IMG/VR virus record: IMGVR_UViG_3300028586_000020
Location: 15,149-79,148 of that record
Direction: 5' to 3' (one strand)
Length of the DNA stretch: 64,000 nucleotides
Source: a virus
Taxonomy: Duplodnaviria > Caudoviricetes
This document shows, in pieces, positions 3,200 through 51,364 of the stretch (within the stretch, counting starts at the first letter, position 1; each line of letters opens with the position of its first letter). The position numbers and the translations under genes are program-made. The notes below the pieces were generated by a model. The model saw nothing but the letters and a program-made list of their open reading frames with translations, was not told where the DNA came from and did no database searches.

Positions 3200-4435
3200 T
3201 TAACGGGTGTTCTTGTTCGACAGCGAACCAGTCCAGGTTGCCATGTTGTCTTCCGACCAGAAGTACCAGACGTCTTTGGCGCCCGCTGCGGTGGTGCGCG
3301 CTGGTGTGACACCATCGACCCACTTGACATTGCTTGGCCAAGCAATAGCGAAAGCAGTCGGCACGTTGGCGTTGATGGTACTGACCGAGAACTCGACGAC
3401 TTGACCTGCCATATCACCGACATTACGGATATCAAAGCCGATGGCGCCATTGGCACTGACGGTCACTTGGTAAGCGCCGGCTTGGCTAATATCGATGGCG
3501 ATGGTGCCATTCATCGGGATCTTCACCAGATTTTGCGAACCCAGTCCAGTGAACTTTGGACGATCCATATTGGCCTTTTGATTGACCACGGCGATCAATG
3601 CTTTGTGTAACGCTTGCAGTTTGCACAGCGCGCTTAACACGCTATCGGTTTCCGACAGGTTTTCTGGCTCGACTTCGGTGAGGCTGGTAAGTTTGGCAGC
3701 CAACGCACGCGATTCAGTGAAATACTTGTTGATCTCACCTTCTGGTACGTTGTCTGTGGTGCGGGTTAAGTTCAACAACGCTTGTTCGACGTAGAGCTCC
3801 ATTTGCTCGACTGTCGGCACGCCCAGGTCAACAGCAGTGAGGTTGTGGGCATTGCCTTGCTGGTTGATGTGCTGCGTCATTGCTGAGCTGGCTTGGGTCA
3901 GAATCGCATCGACCATGCGGTTAAGGGCAGCCAACACACTGCTCATGCCGACCATGTCCTTCAGATTCCACTCATGGGGCACGGGTGGGAAGATGTCCGG
4001 GTAACCTGCCACTTGGTCCCAGCTGGTGGTACGGGGGTTGTAGACTTTGTCTGCCAGGATTTCTGCTGTCTTGTTGGCATCGACCGTCCACTCGCCACCG
4101 AGCGTTTGGTAAGGGTTAAAGATGACGGTACCACGCAGCTCATTGTTGAGCATGGTGATCGAACCCTTCACCGGTTTTTGGCATGCCTTACTGGCGCCGA
4201 TGAAATGGTGTGAGAAATAAAAATCTACTCCTTCCACGAGTGGGCGAATGTCCCCCTGCAACGACTTGAAGTTGAGCGTCATGCTTTCAGCAAAGAACGG
4301 CGTCGCTTTCGGAATCAGGAAAATGAAGTTCTCATCGCTCCCGCCGAGCAAAGGTTGCAGTTCGCCAACGACCCTGTTCGTCGCAGCTTGACCGGTAGGA
4401 TCGAAAGGATATTGCGGGCTTGTGATAGTAGACAT
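3200..4435 (-). CDS. Putative tail fibre / baseplate-attached virion protein
   Basis: The N-terminal YPFDPTG...N...E motif is typical of phiKZ-like virion fibre/baseplate proteins. The C-terminus IAWPSNVKWVDGVTPARTTAAGAKDVWYFWSED..TWTG resembles a common phage tail-fibre C-terminal domain. Start moved to ATG 4435 (AAGG RBS). Confidence 0.7.
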   Translation of the reverse strand: MSTITSPQYPFDPTGQAATNRVVGELQPLLGGSDENFIFLIPKATPFFAESMTLNFKSLQGDIRPLVEGVDFYFSHHFIGASKACQKPVKGSITMLNNELRGTVIFNPYQTLGGEWTVDANKTAEILADKVYNPRTTSWDQVAGYPDIFPPVPHEWNLKDMVGMSSVLAALNRMVDAILTQASSAMTQHINQQGNAHNLTAVDLGVPTVEQMELYVEQALLNLTRTTDNVPEGEINKYFTESRALAAKLTSLTEVEPENLSETDSVLSALCKLQALHKALIAVVNQKANMDRPKFTGLGSQNLVKIPMNGTIAIDISQAGAYQVTVSANGAIGFDIRNVGDMAGQVVEFSVSTINANVPTAFAIAWPSNVKWVDGVTPARTTAAGAKDVWYFWSEDNMATWTGSLSNKNTR

Positions 4436-14826: not shown

Positions 14827-15252
14827 ATGCAACGCAAAACACACATCGTGATCGCCTCGATCATTTTCGTTTTGGGTGGTTGTGGTAGTTTCAATAACAG
14901 TTTCAATACTTACCCGCCGCCCATTCCCAAAGAAAGTCCCATGGAAATGAGTTCGGTGGTGATGGAGCCCGATGAAGACGTCACGGCGCCGGCGATCATC
15001 CCGATCAAGATCGCTCCTAAAGCGACAGAGAACGTTTCCAAGCCCTGTTCGGTTTCTCCGTATCCAACACCAGGTAAATTCCCTGAACTCCCCATCAAGG
15101 CTGCGCAAGGGGCTGAAGGGGACCCTTACGCTTTAGAACGTATCTGGCGCAAGCACGTCGATGAACTGCGCTCGTATATTAGCGAGCGACGACGGTTGCA
15201 GCGGGAAGCGCGTGAAACATTTACGGAAAAGTGCGAGACCGTGGGCAAATAG
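14827..15252 (+). CDS. Lipoprotein, candidate o-spanin
   Basis: Signal peptide with lipobox MQRKTHIVIASIIFV-LGGC; Pro-rich mature region with two further Cys; AAGGAG RBS. Confidence 0.6.
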   Translation: MQRKTHIVIASIIFVLGGCGSFNNSFNTYPPPIPKESPMEMSSVVMEPDEDVTAPAIIPIKIAPKATENVSKPCSVSPYPTPGKFPELPIKAAQGAEGDPYALERIWRKHVDELRSYISERRRLQREARETFTEKCETVGK

Positions 15253-24165: not shown

Positions 24166-24189
24166 TAATAAATCTCAAACCTATATCAT
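24166..24189 (+). promoter_or_regulatory. Putative early (virion RNAP) promoter, CTATATCAT
   Basis: TAATAAATCTCAAAC-CTATATCAT; the same motif recurs at 46289-46312 and 62277-62300, each upstream of a + strand gene. Similar to the phiKZ early consensus TATATTAC. Confidence 0.55.
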
Positions 24190-24228
24190 TAAAATGTAGT
24201 ACCCATTCATTCTACAAGGAGGAAGTCA

Positions 24229-45437: not shown

Positions 45438-46238
45438 ATGTTTGGAAATCCTAACTCCGTAATTTTCGCCTGTACCTCACTTACTGGCGTTAACAAAGTT
45501 GGCACCTTAAAGAAGACGCCAGAAGGCTACTACCCGATGGTGGTGGGTGCGCTGAACGTCTTTAACTCCGGTGGTCAATTCTATCCCATCAATAACGAAG
45601 TGCGCGCGCTGTTCGAAGAATCGAGTTCGTTCATGCGTCGCGTGCAGCGTGGCGCGTTGCGGGGCGAGATGGGTCACCCCAAACCCCCACCGCGCAGTCT
45701 CAATCAGCAAGAACAGCGTCTGCTTGACCAAGAGTTCGTACGACGCAATCTGTCGATCTACGAAGAGCGGGTGTGTTGTCACCACATGAAAATTTGGCTG
45801 GACTTCGATTCTGTCAAAGACAAAGAGGGCAAACCTGTCATCTCAATCATGTCGCTCGTCAAGCCCAGTGGTGAACTTGGCCATGTGCTGGAAAAGCAAC
45901 TGGAAAATCCTTACGAAAACGTGTGCTTCTCGATCCGTTCGTTTACCGACAACCGCACCCGTTTCGGTGTGGAAGAACGTACCCTGAAAGAAATCGTCAC
46001 GTTTGATAACGTCAACGAACCCGGTATCGCAACTGCGGAACGTTGGACCTCGCCTTCGCTGGAAAGCGGATTTGAAATGGAAATGAGTCGTGGTCTGCTC
46101 GACAGCGCAATCATGATGAACCGCCCAGCTGGTATTTCGGCTGAGTCGATTATCGTTTCCCCAGCAGCATTGTACAATGCGCTGAACTGGTCACTCCCGA
46201 ACGAAAAAGCGCAGCGGCGCCCTTCGCAAGGTTGGTAA
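45438..46238 (+). CDS. Prohead (head maturation) protease (phiKZ gp175-like)
   Basis: RGEMGHP (His), CFSIRSF (Ser), IVTFDNVNEPG; C-terminal SLE/SAE self-cleavage-type sites. Confidence 0.9.
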   Translation: MFGNPNSVIFACTSLTGVNKVGTLKKTPEGYYPMVVGALNVFNSGGQFYPINNEVRALFEESSSFMRRVQRGALRGEMGHPKPPPRSLNQQEQRLLDQEFVRRNLSIYEERVCCHHMKIWLDFDSVKDKEGKPVISIMSLVKPSGELGHVLEKQLENPYENVCFSIRSFTDNRTRFGVEERTLKEIVTFDNVNEPGIATAERWTSPSLESGFEMEMSRGLLDSAIMMNRPAGISAESIIVSPAALYNALNWSLPNEKAQRRPSQGW

Positions 46239-46246
46239 ACCTACTA

Positions 46247-46277
46247 CCCCTCATCCTGCGGGATGGGGGGTCTTATG
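46247..46277 (+). terminator. Hairpin followed by TATG after the protease gene
   Basis: CCCC-T-CATCC-TGCG-GGATG-GGGGG then TCTTATG. Confidence 0.65.
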
Positions 46278-46288
46278 CCGTATGGTAC

Positions 46289-46312
46289 TAAATAGTTTTG
46301 ACACTATATCAC
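46289..46312 (+). promoter_or_regulatory. Putative early promoter, CTATATCAC
   Basis: TAAATAGTTTTGACA-CTATATCAC; one of three copies of the motif. Confidence 0.55.
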
Positions 46313-46419
46313 TATTTTGAATTGCAATAGTAGTTGTCATTATGCAAAAAAGCAATACAGAAATATCGGTCATCCACCTGCTATAGAGCAGATCCACCAT
46401 TCAAAGTAGAGGAATCAAA

Positions 46420-47007
46420 TTGGGTACTCCCGTCAATCCCCTGTGGGATAAAGTTCTGGTTGTGTTCAAAGGCCATGAGCACAAGCTGTCCAATGTGCTC
46501 GCCAAAGCCACACCTGGTACGGTCGAAATGGAACTCGACAAAATCGATCTGGACGCAACGACTGCTGAAGTACGTTACGACGACGCTGTCGAATGTGAAG
46601 ACATTGGCCGTGGCATGCCAATCTTCTACAAACACGAAGGCAAGTTTATCGTGTTCACTGGCCGGCAAACCGTGGAAACGGTGAAGACCCACGCCAAACC
46701 AAAACCTGACGGCAAACCCATTACCGTTACCGGCCGGCTGTTGTCGTCAGTGGCACTCAAGTCGATTCGCATTGTGAAAGACGTGCCTGTCGAACCAACG
46801 CCTGCCGCTGCACCGTTTAACCCGCCGCGCTTTACTGGTAGCATCAACCCACGCCCTACCGAGCGCCGCGTGCCTTACCAAGACCGTCCTCGCCCGACGA
46901 GTTCGAGCATGTATCCCCCGCAGTCCAGTTCGTCGCGTTACGATTCACCCTATCCTGGTCAAACTGCCCGTACGCCCTACGGTAAGTCGACCAAAAAACC
47001 GCAGTAA
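46420..47007 (+). CDS. Hypothetical protein, possibly with a degenerate ParB/Srx-like fold and a disordered Pro/Arg/Ser/Tyr tail
   Basis: TTG start with AGAGGA RBS. PIFYKHEGKFIVFTGRQTV resembles ParB-type P....G.y.i.dG..R. Confidence 0.6.
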   Translation: MGTPVNPLWDKVLVVFKGHEHKLSNVLAKATPGTVEMELDKIDLDATTAEVRYDDAVECEDIGRGMPIFYKHEGKFIVFTGRQTVETVKTHAKPKPDGKPITVTGRLLSSVALKSIRIVKDVPVEPTPAAAPFNPPRFTGSINPRPTERRVPYQDRPRPTSSSMYPPQSSSSRYDSPYPGQTARTPYGKSTKKPQ

Positions 47008-47026
47008 TCTTTGTAGTACCGTTTAT

Positions 47027-47162
47027 GCTAGAGGTGGCCGAGTGGCTGAAGGCAGGTCCGCTGAACCGAGAAAGATGAAAATCCTATCGGAGGTAGATAC
47101 CTGGAAGGGTGAGTTAATCTCACCGGAGTAAGGCATGGGTTCGAATCCCATCCTCTAGCGCC
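47027..47162 (+). tRNA. Atypical tRNA-like element (Ser-type D arm, 8-bp acceptor stem, expanded anticodon region)
   Basis: GCTAGAGG/CCTCTAGC acceptor stem, G discriminator then CC; TG-GCC-GAGTGGCTGAA-GGC D arm; ATGGG-TTCGAAT-CCCAT T arm. About 80 nt separate the D and T arms and no canonical anticodon arm is present. Confidence 0.65.
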
Positions 47163-47204
47163 TTGTTTTAACCCGTAGTACATACCACCAAAAAGGAAAC
47201 CAGT

Positions 47205-47714
47205 ATGAGTACCGATAAAGCCGACATCAAGCTGAACCCAGCCGTCGAAGAAATGTCCAGCAAGATCCGCGAAGCCATCAGCGTCACGATCACCGGTAAA
47301 GGCGGCGACGTCGCTAACGCCGAGAACATCTACGAAAGCCTGCTGCCTGCTGACATCCCTGCCGACCTGGTCAAGCGCATCAATACCCACAACGAAATGT
47401 TCATGGCTGCCGCCGTCGACGCCGTCGGCGATACCTCGCGCGACTCCGCTTCCCAGAACGCCGACCTGACCGTCGTCAACGCCAGCTTCAACATGACCGG
47501 CCGCAACAAGTTCGATGTCCAATGGGACCGCGAAGTCGAACGCAACGCCGGCATCGCCGAAAAGGGCAAAGTCGCACCGAAGAAAACCGTCTACGGCGCC
47601 ATGTCGGCCAAGCTGACCGTGGCAGGCACCGATAGCGGCACCGGCGAAATGAACAAGGTCATGCGTCGCCAGAAACAAGCCGCCCACGACCTGTTCTCGA
47701 CCGCCACCGCCTAA
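47205..47714 (+). CDS. Hypothetical protein with high-expression codon usage
   Basis: 169 aa, AAGGA RBS, strongly C-ending codons. Confidence 0.8.
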   Translation: MSTDKADIKLNPAVEEMSSKIREAISVTITGKGGDVANAENIYESLLPADIPADLVKRINTHNEMFMAAAVDAVGDTSRDSASQNADLTVVNASFNMTGRNKFDVQWDREVERNAGIAEKGKVAPKKTVYGAMSAKLTVAGTDSGTGEMNKVMRRQKQAAHDLFSTATA

Positions 47715-48156
47715 GCATCGCCGGCCTGGGCCACACGGCAAGCATGAAAGCTCACCAGGCACACCCATGCAAGCCCAACGGCTAAGCCAAAAAATCTGGC
47801 GTACTCCGCAGCGTCTACCAAACGGTACGGAGTACGCTAGTAAAAGGAACTAGGGTCATCCTTGTCTTGTATTACATACATCGATGTACCAGGCACACAG
47901 ACAGAGTATTGCCTGGTACAGAAGGTGTCACTGTAAGACGAAGTTCTCTTTAAGAGAACATTCCCTCATCTCTTTCGAAACATACCTCTTAGCCTGACGG
48001 GGCAAACACATGGGGCGCATTGGTCCTCATCGAAAGAGATGTAAGTAGTCCATGTCCGCTACCGTAAGGGAAGTTGGCAAACAACAGACATGGTTGTGAC
48101 CAGGCTCTCGCTCCTTCGGGAGCGAGAGCCTGAGTTATGATGTCTCTTTTTTTTTT
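47715..48156 (+). ncRNA. Candidate structured non-coding RNA (about 440 nt)
   Basis: No credible ORF. Consecutive stems at 47724-29/47755-60, 47796-808/47828-840, 47885-895/47910-920, 47943-959, 47967-978/48030-041 and 48050-056/48087-093, then a 14-bp terminator hairpin. Confidence 0.5.
48101..48156 (+). terminator. Rho-independent terminator
   Basis: CAGGCTCTCGCTCC-TTCG-GGAGCGAGAGCCTG, then TTATG and a 10-T run. Confidence 0.85.
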
Positions 48157-48262
48157 CATTTTTAAACACAGCCTCTGTGAGGCGTTTATTTCCTATGGAC
48201 ACAAGAATCTACTCAGCCACAGAAACAAACGCTCCTAGGGGCCTTATAGACCGTTTTGACAG

Positions 48263-48306
48263 CATACTACCCATCCATCCCCGCTGTGGAGATGGATGGG
48301 AGTATG
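48263..48306 (-). terminator. Hairpin with CATACT/AGTATG flanks downstream of the tail tube gene
   Basis: CCCATCCATC...GATGGATGGG stem. Confidence 0.75.
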
Positions 48307-48313
48307 ACGTTGT

Positions 48314-49204
48314 TTAGACGTTGATTTGACGATTGGCGATGCTTTGCACGCTGGCATCGAAACCGACACCACCAGCTGCGCGTACATCTGCGCTGATCTG
48401 GTTGATCATGGCCTGTTTCATCATCGGGTTAGCACCGACGTAGTTGACCGTGTTCAGGATCTGCTGCGCGAACGCGTCGACACCGGGGCCGACTTGGTGC
48501 AGGGCGGTGAACGACAGATCGAGCTGGACCGTTTGCATGTCCTGGGTCTTGTCTGCCGAACCGACGATGTCGCCCGTGCCTTCTGGGAACATGTTGAAGC
48601 AGAGCCAGGATTGCTGGACTTTGCGACCGAATGCATCCGGCTCGATGTAGAGCACGGTCATCGTGGTTTGGTCGGCGAGCAGATCAGGCGCTTGGCCGCT
48701 GTTGTAGGCCGCTTGAAACGCTGGCAGGGTGGTCACCATAGGGAACTTGGTGTCCGGGTCCATGCCCGCATACAGCATCCAGGTTTCGATCAGGCGTTGG
48801 ATCGGGCGACCGAAGCGTTCGATGTACGAGTGCTTCGGCTGCGATTCAGCGCGCTTGATGTTCGACAGGTCTTTCTGCGTTTGACCGGAGCCGCCGAAAG
48901 CGTTTTCGGTAAAGCTGGCCGAGAGGCCGCGGTTCAGACCATCGATGTTCAGCCATTGCGTCTCGATCAGAGCGCGCAGCGCCGAAACGTATTTTGGGCT
49001 GTTCGGGAAATACTGGAACAGCTTGGGGGCCTCGATCAGGATGGGGATGAGGTGACGACGGATGTGCGCTTGGTTGTTGACAAACGCAGCATGGTCCGGC
49101 GCCCAACCCATCTGGCCGCCGTAGGTCAGATCGACCATCGGCGCATTGGCACCCAGACCGTAAGCTGTGCCAGGTTGCAGAATGGCACCAGTAGGACGAG
49201 TCAT
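48314..49204 (-). CDS. Tail tube protein (phiKZ gp30-like)
   Basis: 296 aa directly downstream of the sheath gene; WLCFNMFPEGTG motif and highly biased codons. Confidence 0.85.
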   Translation of the reverse strand: MTRPTGAILQPGTAYGLGANAPMVDLTYGGQMGWAPDHAAFVNNQAHIRRHLIPILIEAPKLFQYFPNSPKYVSALRALIETQWLNIDGLNRGLSASFTENAFGGSGQTQKDLSNIKRAESQPKHSYIERFGRPIQRLIETWMLYAGMDPDTKFPMVTTLPAFQAAYNSGQAPDLLADQTTMTVLYIEPDAFGRKVQQSWLCFNMFPEGTGDIVGSADKTQDMQTVQLDLSFTALHQVGPGVDAFAQQILNTVNYVGANPMMKQAMINQISADVRAAGGVGFDASVQSIANRQINV

Positions 49205-49273: not shown

Positions 49274-51364
49274 TTAAACGGCCTGGGTTTGGAGGTCTTC
49301 CGAACGATACGACTCGATCGTCAGCGACTGGACCGTACGCATTGGCGATGCGCCCAGCTTGATCTTGGTCGTCCAGCTATAACCACGCAGATCATCGTCG
49401 GCTGTGAATTCCGTTTCCACGATGAATTCGAAGCGGTTATCGAACTTACCATCGACCGCGGCGAGGATGGCGCTGTTAATGCGTTCCACGAGTTGGTCTT
49501 TGGTCAGGTCTTGACGACCCGTCATGTCACGGTGGACCTTGTCGCCGATACGCACCAGCTGCGCGCACGCGAAGGCGGTGATGGCTCCGTTCAGCACCGA
49601 GGTGTCGTCTGGGAAGACGGTCTGGTGTTGTGGGAAATACATCATGTCCATCGTGTACGGCTCTGGCCAGACCATGCCGGCGTCCCAGTCCTTGTAACGC
49701 GCGTTGGCAGGGCGGAACACCACGTTCATGTCGCGCAGCAGGCTAACGACGTTGTTCGGGTTGACGTCGGGTTTGTAGTTCGGTACCCACTTGCCGTTCG
49801 CTGCGCCCATGTAGAGCGACCAGGCGTTTGCGCGGTCGATCGAAGAAGGCACTGCTGCGGTATAGTTACTGTTGAGCAGATAGCCCGAACCAGCGATGAT
49901 GCAACCACGCACGGTCGGCGTTGCGTAGTAATCCGATTCCGGATAGCTTTGCAGCGCTTGTGCCAGGGAGATGGCCACCGAACGTTCTTGCTCGTCAGTC
50001 AGGTTGGGACCACCGACGACGTGGGTCGAACCCATCACAAAGGTGTCTTTGCGCACGCCGATGAAGTTACCCAAGACGCGCTTGACATCCAGCGGGAAGC
50101 CCGAATCCCAGAACATGTTTTCTGGGTGGTTGACAGCATCTTGACGGAAGCTGTTCTTGTCACCGTATTCTTGCAACTTGGCTTTCACCAGGTTCGAGAA
50201 TACTTCGTCGTTCATGGTGCCATCCGAACCGCCGCTGGCATACATCACACCCGTTTCGTTCAGGCGGACGCTGTTGTTGGCGCCGGTGACGAGCTGGAAG
50301 GTGTGGTACGGCGCGCCGTAGGACGACACTGCGGTGAACGGGTTGATGCGGTAGATCTCGTCTTGCTCGCCTTGAATGTCGCTGAAGACATCGATGGTTG
50401 GCAGTTCGGCCTGGTAGATCATGTTCAGCACGGTCTTGACGTTGTTGTCGTAGACCTTGATGCGATCGAAGTCGCCGATGGTAGGCGACATGCCTGGCGT
50501 CGACGCGTCGTGGTATGCTTTGACGAAAATATCGCCCAGGTACATCTGCGCACCGGTGGCGCGGTCACGCATGCCTGGCTTCAGGGTGAAGGTCAGTTCT
50601 GGCGTGCCGCCCAGGGTTGACACGGTTTGTGCGGTGGTCAGGTTATCAGGACGCGATTTGACAGCCAGCTGGAACGGATAGGCTTTCTGGTCCGTGATCA
50701 GTTTGGTGTTGACCACGTTTTGGGTCAGTTGGGTCAGCACCCACAGGGCGATGCCTTTGTCGTTACCCCACTCGCCTTCCGAGCTGACCATGAAGTCCAT
50801 GATCGGGTAGCGGTCCGACTGAGTCGAACTTTGGACATCGGTCTGGTCGCCTTTGGTGACGGTGCCGACGCCGAATTGACGAACGCCTTCGAAGACCGAA
50901 ATCGGTTCGACGACCCATTTGCCCAGATAACCATCGACCTTGGCGCCGAGTGGCGTCTTGATGCCATCCAGGCCCAGCTTGTACGAGCCGTCGGTGTTGC
51001 GCTCGAAGTCTTGGATTTGGGTTTCCAGCAGATCGAGCGACAGGCGGAAAGCTGCCGGCGGCGCGATGTCTTCTGGAACGATGCGTTCGACCATCGAGGC
51101 GTTGCCGGCCCGGTTGAACACGTTGTTGAATGCGGTTGCGTGGTTGAAGTACTTGCCCAGCTCATCGAACGTCTCTGCGCCGAAGATGGCCGTGCGGCTG
51201 TCGCCAACAACGAGATAGTTCTTGCCTGGTTTGCCTTTGCGGGCGAACAAAAACGATTTTGGCAGGTGGGACGGCTGGTCGAGTGCTTGAGGAGCCAGCG
51301 TCCGACCAGACACATCGTGGATGCCGCGATTGTACGTCATCGGTACGGCGTTAGGGATGTTCAT
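49274..51364 (-). CDS. Tail sheath protein (phiKZ gp29-like)
   Basis: 696 aa; FWDSGFPLDVK, YPESDYY.TP..RG.I..GSG and the C-terminal DDLRGYSWTTKIKL are typical of jumbo-phage sheaths. Confidence 0.9.
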   Translation of the reverse strand: MNIPNAVPMTYNRGIHDVSGRTLAPQALDQPSHLPKSFLFARKGKPGKNYLVVGDSRTAIFGAETFDELGKYFNHATAFNNVFNRAGNASMVERIVPEDIAPPAAFRLSLDLLETQIQDFERNTDGSYKLGLDGIKTPLGAKVDGYLGKWVVEPISVFEGVRQFGVGTVTKGDQTDVQSSTQSDRYPIMDFMVSSEGEWGNDKGIALWVLTQLTQNVVNTKLITDQKAYPFQLAVKSRPDNLTTAQTVSTLGGTPELTFTLKPGMRDRATGAQMYLGDIFVKAYHDASTPGMSPTIGDFDRIKVYDNNVKTVLNMIYQAELPTIDVFSDIQGEQDEIYRINPFTAVSSYGAPYHTFQLVTGANNSVRLNETGVMYASGGSDGTMNDEVFSNLVKAKLQEYGDKNSFRQDAVNHPENMFWDSGFPLDVKRVLGNFIGVRKDTFVMGSTHVVGGPNLTDEQERSVAISLAQALQSYPESDYYATPTVRGCIIAGSGYLLNSNYTAAVPSSIDRANAWSLYMGAANGKWVPNYKPDVNPNNVVSLLRDMNVVFRPANARYKDWDAGMVWPEPYTMDMMYFPQHQTVFPDDTSVLNGAITAFACAQLVRIGDKVHRDMTGRQDLTKDQLVERINSAILAAVDGKFDNRFEFIVETEFTADDDLRGYSWTTKIKLGASPMRTVQSLTIESYRSEDLQTQAV

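Follow-up and report, generated by a model that had tools for sequence, protein, structure and literature searches.

The 64,000-nucleotide (nt) stretch of DNA analysed here (the window; positions 15,149 to 79,148 of the IMG/VR virus record IMGVR_UViG_3300028586_000020, Duplodnaviria, Caudoviricetes) carries, between the genes for the prohead protease and the tail tube, a 1.9-kb stretch that is, as read from its sequence and that of its relatives, one conserved and bounded transcription unit of a phiKZ-like jumbo phage. In this unit two open reading frames, ORF-A and ORF-B, are separated by a tRNA-like element and followed by a structured 3' region in which two small RNA modules, termed M1 and M2, are found (Table 1). 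The parts of the unit are real and partly new; their joint action as an RNA-protein machine is unsupported. With a probability that we place somewhat above even, the stretch would be an early-type unit that contains a processed, tRNA-derived module and closes with a 3' end that protects the message or binds a partner. A sequence-only reading had already singled out the 1.9-kb unit between the protease and tube genes, and every feature that it named was found in place.

Bounds and relatives of the unit

As had been proposed, the unit is bounded on both sides, with the terminator of the protease gene and an invariant promoter motif at its start and a terminator of a genome-wide class at its end. 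The promoter motif CTATATCAC (46304-46312) is invariant in an alignment of eight relatives, the same alignment in which the ACTATATCACT core is among the invariant blocks between the protease terminator and ORF-A. Its octamer TATATCAC (46305-46312) differs by one base from TATATTAC, the consensus published for the early promoters of phiKZ (PMC7058600 Table 2), and the word TATATCAY occurs four times in the 64-kb window, always on the plus strand and 50-110 nt upstream of a start codon. The motif proposed for the start of the unit is thus borne out by both its invariance and its closeness to the phiKZ word, and "early" is a reasonable label for the putative promoter at 46296-46312.

At the opposite end, the 14-bp UUCG terminator that had been described can be read directly in the sequence, and its hairpin, TATG word and T-run are all kept in relatives. 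The word TATG[AC][CT]GT is present at 14 sites in the window, mostly directly after a G+C-rich hairpin at the end of a gene, and the combination of hairpin and word is, to judge from this distribution, the phage's own terminator class. Since the terminators of the protease gene and of the unit share this arrangement, both can be assigned to that class. Terminators defined by sequence motifs have been published for phiKZ and 201phi2-1 (PMC11512511).

Two further words recur around the unit. GTAGTAC, found just ahead of the tRNA-like element, has a second copy at 47175-47181, inside the conserved ORF-B leader, and related GYAGYAC words recur in the ORF-A/ORF-B spacer of relatives. Elsewhere in the window, at 24171-24202, a promoter-like word TATATCAT is followed 6 nt on by GTAGTAC and then by a strong ribosome-binding site, an arrangement from which it follows that GTAGTAC may mark transcription starts in this phage. 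The motif TTGACNNYATAYYAC has two copies, which flank the unit. The second one (48252-48270, plus strand) lies just before the hairpin of the tube terminator and is kept in relatives. It may serve as an early-type promoter, giving antisense RNA of the sheath and tube genes, or be the reversed tail of a minus-strand terminator, and because it can be read in these two ways TTGACNNYATAYYAC was left out of the unit.

The IMG/VR contig that holds the window measures 79 kb, an estimated 29% of the genome, and the structural module around the unit is phiKZ-like according to its PHROG matches. As a DNA query against "phages", a 2.1-kb stretch found no match. Protein searches gave Burkholderia phage FLC9 as the sole cultured relative, at about 30% identity. 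Scans of viral and metagenome contigs with ORF-B returned only four relatives (viral contigs L004-L007), a large protein index searched with the same protein returned 21 metagenomic homologues (P0001-P0021), and contig look-ups of the protein-index matches added L037-L047 and L052-L054. The gene order protease, ORF-A, ORF-B, long gene-free spacer, tube (minus strand) and sheath (minus strand) is common to 12 metagenomic lineages.

The tRNA-like element and its kin

That the spacer between the two ORFs encodes a tRNA-like RNA, as the sequence-only reading had it, is confirmed by a match to the Rfam tRNA family (RF00005) and by a homologue with compensatory changes. The match spans 47028-47159 and model positions 1-71, with 36.4 bits against a cut-off of 29, and in the top half of the element every conserved position is aligned to the tRNA model with high posterior probability. 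The 17-nt anticodon arm gives way to about 75 nt (75-78 nt when the homologue is included). When 47027-47034 are paired with 47152-47159, ahead of the G-CC tail, the acceptor stem comes to 8 bp, and no CCA is encoded; a true phage tRNA-Ser (L008) has the same D arm, letter for letter, with a stem of 3 bp and a loop of 11 nt. Spacers of 19 nt and 42 nt separate the element from the ORF-A stop and the ORF-B start, and its fold z-score is -2.3.

The homologue (L043:2320-2458, in contigs L043 and L044) occupies the same site between the ORFs and scores 36.1 bits. From the window to L043, U-A becomes C-G in the acceptor stem and A-U becomes G-C in the T stem, both compensatory replacements; L043 has A.C as the outermost, eighth acceptor pair, and the anticodon-side sequences differ. 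With default settings ARAGORN makes no call on the element. When introns are allowed, it proposes one of 38 nt in the window, giving Gln(CTG), and one of 39 nt in L043, giving Gly(ACC); the two sit at different points and leave poor, mismatched stems. A 5-bp anticodon stem with a 7-nt loop and a shared anticodon is absent from both copies. Given the compensatory changes in the stems and the discordant ARAGORN calls, we take the top half of the element to be under selection and the two copies to share no decodable anticodon. The insert at 47063-47100 has neither a TTCRANY T loop nor a CCA end, and hence is not tRNA-shaped. Two other candidates in the lower half were rejected: a suppressor or Leu anticodon in the loop at 47113-47117 (UUAAU, CUAGU in L043), in which positions 32, 33, 37 and 38 misfit and the loop has 5 nt, and a sarcin-ricin or kink-turn motif in the extra arm, whose key G is C in L043.

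Compared with L004, whose flanks match those of L043 almost base for base, the element is a clean insertion of about 150 nt. In L004, L041, L046, L047, L052-L054, L005-L007 and FLC9 the gap between ORF-A and ORF-B is 43-77 nt and holds no tRNA-like element, and none was found upstream of ORF-B in L045. On this comparison of sequences the element is an accessory insertion into the spacer. The co-occurrence of the two ORFs, the tRNA-like element and the structured 3' region, on which the sequence-only reading had staked its proposal, failed when checked, as only the window lineage and L043/L044 have the element between the ORFs.

Related elements were nevertheless found elsewhere in the unit, with a custom scan for sequences that combine D and T arms with an acceptor stem of 8 bp (8/5 elements, with a 5-bp T stem). 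Hits came from the ORF-B units of L041, L006 and L052, with 0.28 expected in shuffles; L041 has a further, tRNA-Sec-like element at 25 bits (cut-off 47), and L007 has a visibly damaged copy. In all four lineages (L041, L006, L052 and L007) the elements lie downstream of ORF-B, directly 5' of M2 in L006 and L007 and about 140 nt 5' of it in L052. One pair, the b-type pair L041b/L006a, differs by 12 compensatory pairs, including those of the stems that close a three-hairpin junction replacing the anticodon arm, and its eighth, outermost acceptor pair covaries from G-C to A-U. Such inserts were read from sequence pairs. 8/5 tRNA-like RNAs thus recur in the ORF-B unit of this phage clade, and the element of the window would be one of this set. 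As a tentative proposal of lower probability, a family of non-decoding 8/5 tRNA-like RNAs with canonical tRNA top halves and multi-hairpin bodies, placed in a highly expressed early operon together with M1 and M2, may represent a new phage RNA system and be neither tRNAs nor simple signals for processing. Its members could act, for example, by capturing defence nucleases or tRNA-directed host factors as a sponge or decoy, or in an assembly of the GOLLD/ROOL kind.

Over-long tRNA-type genes are also found in the tRNA clusters of relatives, where they are of two kinds: 7/5 tRNAs that end in CCA and bear structured inserts of 46-62 nt in the anticodon loop, and 8/5 elements without CCA. To the first kind belong the interrupted tRNAs at G001:190957-191076 and 191436-191553, in G003 (L015:1170-1308) and in G002 (L016, minus strand), all missed by default ARAGORN; freed of its insert, the one at G001:190957-191076 reads Gly(UCC). 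Two such inserts, from different tRNAs, share a three-hairpin fold in which a loop-to-tail pseudoknot appears, by eye, to covary. In the same clusters an element of about 155 nt (L015:618-774 and L016:1323-1481, minus strand) combines a long structured body with an acceptor stem of 8 bp and lacks CCA; its two copies differ by five compensatory pairs. A relative's cluster also gave a weak match to the Rfam family YrlA (Y RNA-like) at L015:902-1006, with 31 bits against a cut-off of 69. A pattern search for Ser-type tRNAs with long inserts recovered only a normal tRNA-Ser beside a stray T arm, and an 18-nt word from the conserved insert block matched only unrelated coding DNA.

These cluster tRNAs bear on the alternative that the element of the window is itself a working tRNA whose anticodon region is expanded or split by an intron; with about 38 nt removed it would become a class II tRNA, riding on a strongly transcribed spacer. 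The canonical top half, the Ser-type D arm, the long hairpin resembling a variable arm and the G-CC tail would all suit such a tRNA, as would the fact that ARAGORN with introns returns a tRNA for both the window and L043; the CCA-ending 7/5 tRNAs of the relatives provide examples with inserts of 46-62 nt, and phage tRNA introns have been published (PMC6784885). However, the two homologues disagree on both the anticodon and the splice point, Gln(CTG) versus Gly(ACC), with mismatched anticodon stems, and in neither of them does removal appear to restore a clean 5-bp stem and 7-nt loop. The 8-bp acceptor stem and the lack of CCA further set the element apart from the intron-bearing tRNAs of the clusters. 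In addition, we know of no splicing enzyme for such inserts in bacteria. A working tRNA of this type is, all in all, rather unlikely.

The 3' region, the two proteins and the predicted fate of the transcript

The region from the ORF-B stop to the end of the unit (47715-48156) folds with a z-score of -8.5, a value for which none of 100 shuffles folds as well, and holds no plus-strand ORF longer than 37 amino acids. In the Rfam scan of the window, tRNA alone reached its gathering score; small ribozymes, YrlA, tmRNA, GOLLD and ROOL received no Rfam support for the elements of the window (E up to 5, 46200-48350), and GOLLD, ROOL and the other large RNAs of Rfam had no relevant match in the relatives. 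Covariation was assessed on at most 12 related sequences. Module M1, searched with covariance model R1, is present in 12 of 14 lineages. Its 12-nt loop core, ACCAGGCRCRCC, is invariant, and its stem differs wholly in sequence between lineages: 13 of the 14 pairs change on both sides, with a covariation score of 0.418 against 0.215 in shuffles, of which none in 500 reaches the observed value. There is one strong copy per genome, including two complete genomes of 271-272 kb. Module M2, found in seven of 13 lineages (the window, L004, L043, L045, L005, L007 and L052), has a closing stem of 8-12 bp around two conserved single-stranded words, and nine of its 14 predicted pairs are compensatory. A third module, common to seven relatives, is missing from the window.

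The large structured RNA that had been proposed for this 442-nt region was thereby upheld in part: M1 and M2, which covary, are its only shared parts, and the strongest hairpins, at 47797-47840 and 47886-47919, are unique to this lineage. Since the 5' arm of the second one (47888-47898) repeats the M1 loop core, its 3' arm (47910-47917) could pair with the M1 loop. This possible alternative pairing would be confined to the window lineage, and no other pairing partner for the M1 loop was found. The 3' region is, on the evidence of its modules, a partly conserved, structured RNA, more than chance would give and more than a terminator-filled spacer.

The spacer after ORF-B is kept free of genes over 0.5-1.2 kb in all lineages, and in some relatives it has served as a landing site for cargo genes. 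L041 (3848-5189), L042 and L047 (3694-5021) have there, within the structural module of a jumbo phage, a three-gene cargo with Pfam matches to Hcp, Rap1a and Tae4 of the type VI secretion system. L043 has an extra predicted ORF after M2 (3358-3768; 136 amino acids, 111 in L044), seen in this lineage only.

Such traffic invites another explanation: the tRNA-like element would be a neutral mobile passenger or the decaying remains of a tRNA gene, and the 3' region simply a spacer between convergent genes that has gathered terminators and hairpins and functions in termination alone. The varying presence and position of the tRNA-like elements, the damaged copy in L007, the cargo taken up by the spacer (Hcp-Rap1a-Tae4 in L041/L047, the extra ORF in L043) and the lineage-specific nature of the strongest hairpins of the window all speak for it. 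Yet the acceptor and T stems are kept by compensatory changes between the window and L043, as are the stems closing the three-hairpin junction in the b-type pair; M1 preserves its loop over 12 lineages in which the stem has been fully replaced, the closing stem of M2 covaries, and a gene-free spacer of 0.5-1.2 kb is retained throughout. An origin of the whole arrangement by passive accumulation is thus quite unlikely.

Both ORFs had been noted as unannotated proteins of 195 and 169 amino acids, and both proved to be conserved in relatives. An AlphaFold2 (AF2) model of ORF-A has predicted local distance difference test (pLDDT) values of 85-94 over most of residues 11-120, falling below 50 past residue 140. 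A wide structural search with it found 10 PDB chains at Z of at least 2 (Z 2.2-4.5), the best at Z 4.5 with a root-mean-square deviation of 3.4 over 66 residues. We take all 10 to be ParB/sulfiredoxin (Srx)-type domains, presumably those of PadC, KorB, sulfiredoxin, the serine kinase SerK, SbnI, a pNOB8-like ParB-N domain, Osa and BrxU. Matches in BFVD include ParB/Srx proteins of phages EL and Psa21 (E 5e-4 to 3e-2), and a Pfam search with ORF-A gave no match. The predicted N-terminal domain is consistent with a ParB/Srx-like fold, an assignment that is weak. Domains of this type bind nucleotides or DNA.

The leader of ORF-B is near-identical in the window, L043, L004 and L041, with or without the tRNA-like element. 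ORF-B matches phrog_9746 (E 8e-9), and its C-ending codon bias, already pointed out from the sequence, is marked: third-position C reaches 0.61, above the sheath (0.47) and tube (0.44) genes, with 0.32-0.34 in the protease gene and ORF-A, the value for ORF-A being 0.34. In BFVD its AF2 model (pLDDT 86.7) has matches (E 1e-9 to 1e-3) among the uncharacterised proteins of many phiKZ-like phages, which suggests that the predicted fold recurs in such phages. Against the PDB a wide fold search gave nothing convincing (best Z 5.8, pilin-like arrangements only), and a protein atlas returned nothing usable for this protein. ORF-B was rejected as a coat-protein-like RNA binder, with levivirus coat-protein matches at a template-modelling (TM) score of 0.13-0.21 and E above 0.1. 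The notion that the proteins are RNA binders therefore found no backing, ORF-A being apparently ParB/Srx-like and ORF-B being without a known-fold match.

The original suggestion of a dedicated ribonucleoprotein, made up of the processed structured RNA with either or both of the proteins, is very improbable: M1 does lie 24 nt past the ORF-B stop and, in 12 of 14 lineages, occurs together with ORF-B as one strong copy per genome, its invariant 12-nt loop core does suggest a specific trans-acting partner, and ORF-A does have a long, basic, disordered tail, but the idea is left unsupported because the parts do not travel together (the tRNA-like one does not co-occur with the rest), because FLC9 has both ORFs and neither M1 nor M2, and because neither protein resembles an RNA binder, ORF-A being closest to nucleotide- or DNA-binding ParB/Srx domains and ORF-B having no RNA-binding-fold match (levivirus coat proteins, TM 0.13-0.21).

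In the reading that we favour, the phage polymerase would start at the early-type promoter (46296-46312) and produce one transcript comprising ORF-A, the tRNA-like element, ORF-B and the 3' region of 440 nt, ending at the phage-type terminator (48101-48156). The tRNA-like element would derive from a class II, Ser-type tRNA that entered the spacer in one sub-lineage, kept its acceptor/T-arm helix and the elbow between D and T loops, and lost a decodable anticodon. Its intact top half would make it a substrate for tRNA end processing, and host RNase P and the 3' tRNA-processing nuclease would be expected to recognise it. Cutting would release a stable RNA of about 133 nt and part the messages of ORF-A and ORF-B, the latter retaining its conserved leader. 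M1, M2 and the terminator, at the 3' end of the ORF-B message, which would be very highly expressed, may then stabilise this message or bind a partner.

Several points weigh against this model. Processing at this spot is dispensable, given the relatives that have no element. The two GTAGTAC copies, one ahead of the element and one ahead of ORF-B, might each be a promoter of its own, in which case processing would be unneeded to part the two messages. The element itself could be an intron-bearing working tRNA or a neutral passenger. Furthermore, the close relatives are all metagenomic, and the cultured FLC9 has none of the tRNA-like element, M1 and M2; the covariation comes from 12 or fewer related sequences; and the ParB/Srx assignment of ORF-A relies on low scores (Z of 4.5 or less).

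If the model is true, a tRNA-shaped module would lie inside an mRNA of a jumbo phage of the nucleus-forming type, an arrangement of interest since processing or mimicry by tRNA-like parts of mRNAs has so far been shown mainly in eukaryotes, organelles and RNA viruses. M1, M2 and the 8/5 tRNA-like elements would be RNA motifs that Rfam lacks, and M1, with its invariant loop, freely covarying stem and one strong copy per genome, would offer a clear handle for finding an RNA-binding partner. As standard finders miss this class of over-long tRNA-type genes, the tRNA repertoires of these phages would be under-annotated.

Table 1. Features of the unit and its neighbours, with window coordinates.
Feature	Position	Strand	Remarks
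Prohead protease	45438-46238	+	PHROG 3014, E 5e-76
Terminator of protease gene	46247-46281	+	G+C-rich hairpin, then TATGCCGT; stems covary and tail kept in 8 relatives
Promoter-like motif, TTTTGACA + CTATATCAC	46296-46312	+	phiKZ-type early class (putative)
Second leader motif CTATAGAG, in ORF-A leader	46381-46388	+	TATAGAG core (46382-46388) invariant in 8 relatives
ORF-A, 195 amino acids	46420-47007	+	ParB/sulfiredoxin-like N-domain (weak assignment) and disordered, Pro/Arg/Ser-rich basic tail; conserved in relatives
GTAGTAC, first copy	47013-47019	+	7 nt upstream of tRNA-like element
tRNA-like element	47027-47162	+	8-bp acceptor stem, Ser-type D arm, canonical T arm, 3' tail G-CC
ORF-B leader	47175-47204	+	Second GTAGTAC and ribosome-binding site
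ORF-B, 169 amino acids	47205-47714	+	Conserved jumbo-phage protein, strong codon optimisation
Module M1	47738-47774	+	Hairpin 24 nt past ORF-B stop, invariant loop core ACCAGGCRCRCC
Lineage-specific strong hairpin	47797-47840	+	Folds; no counterpart in L004, L043 or other relatives
Lineage-specific hairpin, 5' arm repeats M1 loop core	47886-47919	+	Second exact ACCAGGCACAC at 47888; not in relatives
Module M2	47967-48041	+	12-bp closing stem around GAAACAUWCC and UGGUCCYCAUC
Unit terminator	48101-48156	+	14-bp stem (48101-48114/48119-48132), UUCG loop, TATGATGT, ten T ending at 48156
Tail tube	48314-49204	-	PHROG match
Tail sheath	49274-51364	-	PHROG match

Comparison with known systems

Among known RNAs, class II tRNA-Ser (RF00005) shares with the element the acceptor stem, U8-G9, the Ser D arm, the TTCGAAT T loop on a 5-bp stem and a long extra hairpin ahead of the T arm. 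It differs in that here about 75 nt stand for the 17-nt anticodon arm, no anticodon is shared, the acceptor stem has 8 rather than 7 bp, and the element, without an encoded CCA, lies inside an mRNA spacer rather than in a tRNA cluster. The tRNA introns of Lak megaphages, called "enigmatic" by Devoto et al. (2019, PMC6784885), are similar as over-long tRNA genes of large phages missed by the standard bacterial finders, and the clusters of the present relatives do contain interrupted tRNAs; in the element, by contrast, removal of the insert does not appear to restore a standard anticodon loop, and the host element is of the 8/5 type without CCA.

With bacterial tRNA-Sec, of the 8/5 type, and the allo-tRNAs, the latter being 8/4 and 9/3 (Mukai et al., PMC5389517), the element has in common the branch of 13 bp formed by an 8-bp acceptor and a 5-bp T stem, a discriminator that is a purine (G in the window, A in L043) and the long extra arm. 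tRNA-Sec differs by its D stem, of 6 bp with a 4-nt loop rather than the 3 bp seen here, and the element has no UCA or other fixed anticodon. A search of 46200-48350 with the tRNA-Sec model (RF01852) gave no match at E up to 5. Processing signals of tRNA-like shape are known within longer transcripts, such as mascRNA at the 3' end of MALAT1 and the tRNA punctuation of mitochondria. Like these, the unit has a tRNA-shaped module between RNA segments, with an intact top half of the type recognised by RNase P and RNase Z; the known cases are eukaryotic or organellar and were shown experimentally, whereas cleavage is here a prediction and the relatives do without the module.

GOLLD and ROOL are reportedly large, phage-associated RNAs, as described by Weinberg et al. 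The likeness lies in a long, gene-free, structured RNA in phage DNA that is repeatedly accompanied by tRNA-type elements; the difference is that here there are only two short conserved modules with no large ornate core, and that the region belongs to an mRNA unit, as its 3' part. Finally, with phiKZ and 201phi2-1 the unit shares a hairpin terminator followed by a conserved word and an A/T-rich early promoter that ends in a TATATTAC-like octamer (PMC11512511; PMC7058600), the words themselves being specific to the present clade, TATG[AC][CT]GT after the hairpin and TATATCAY in the promoter, each with a putative function.

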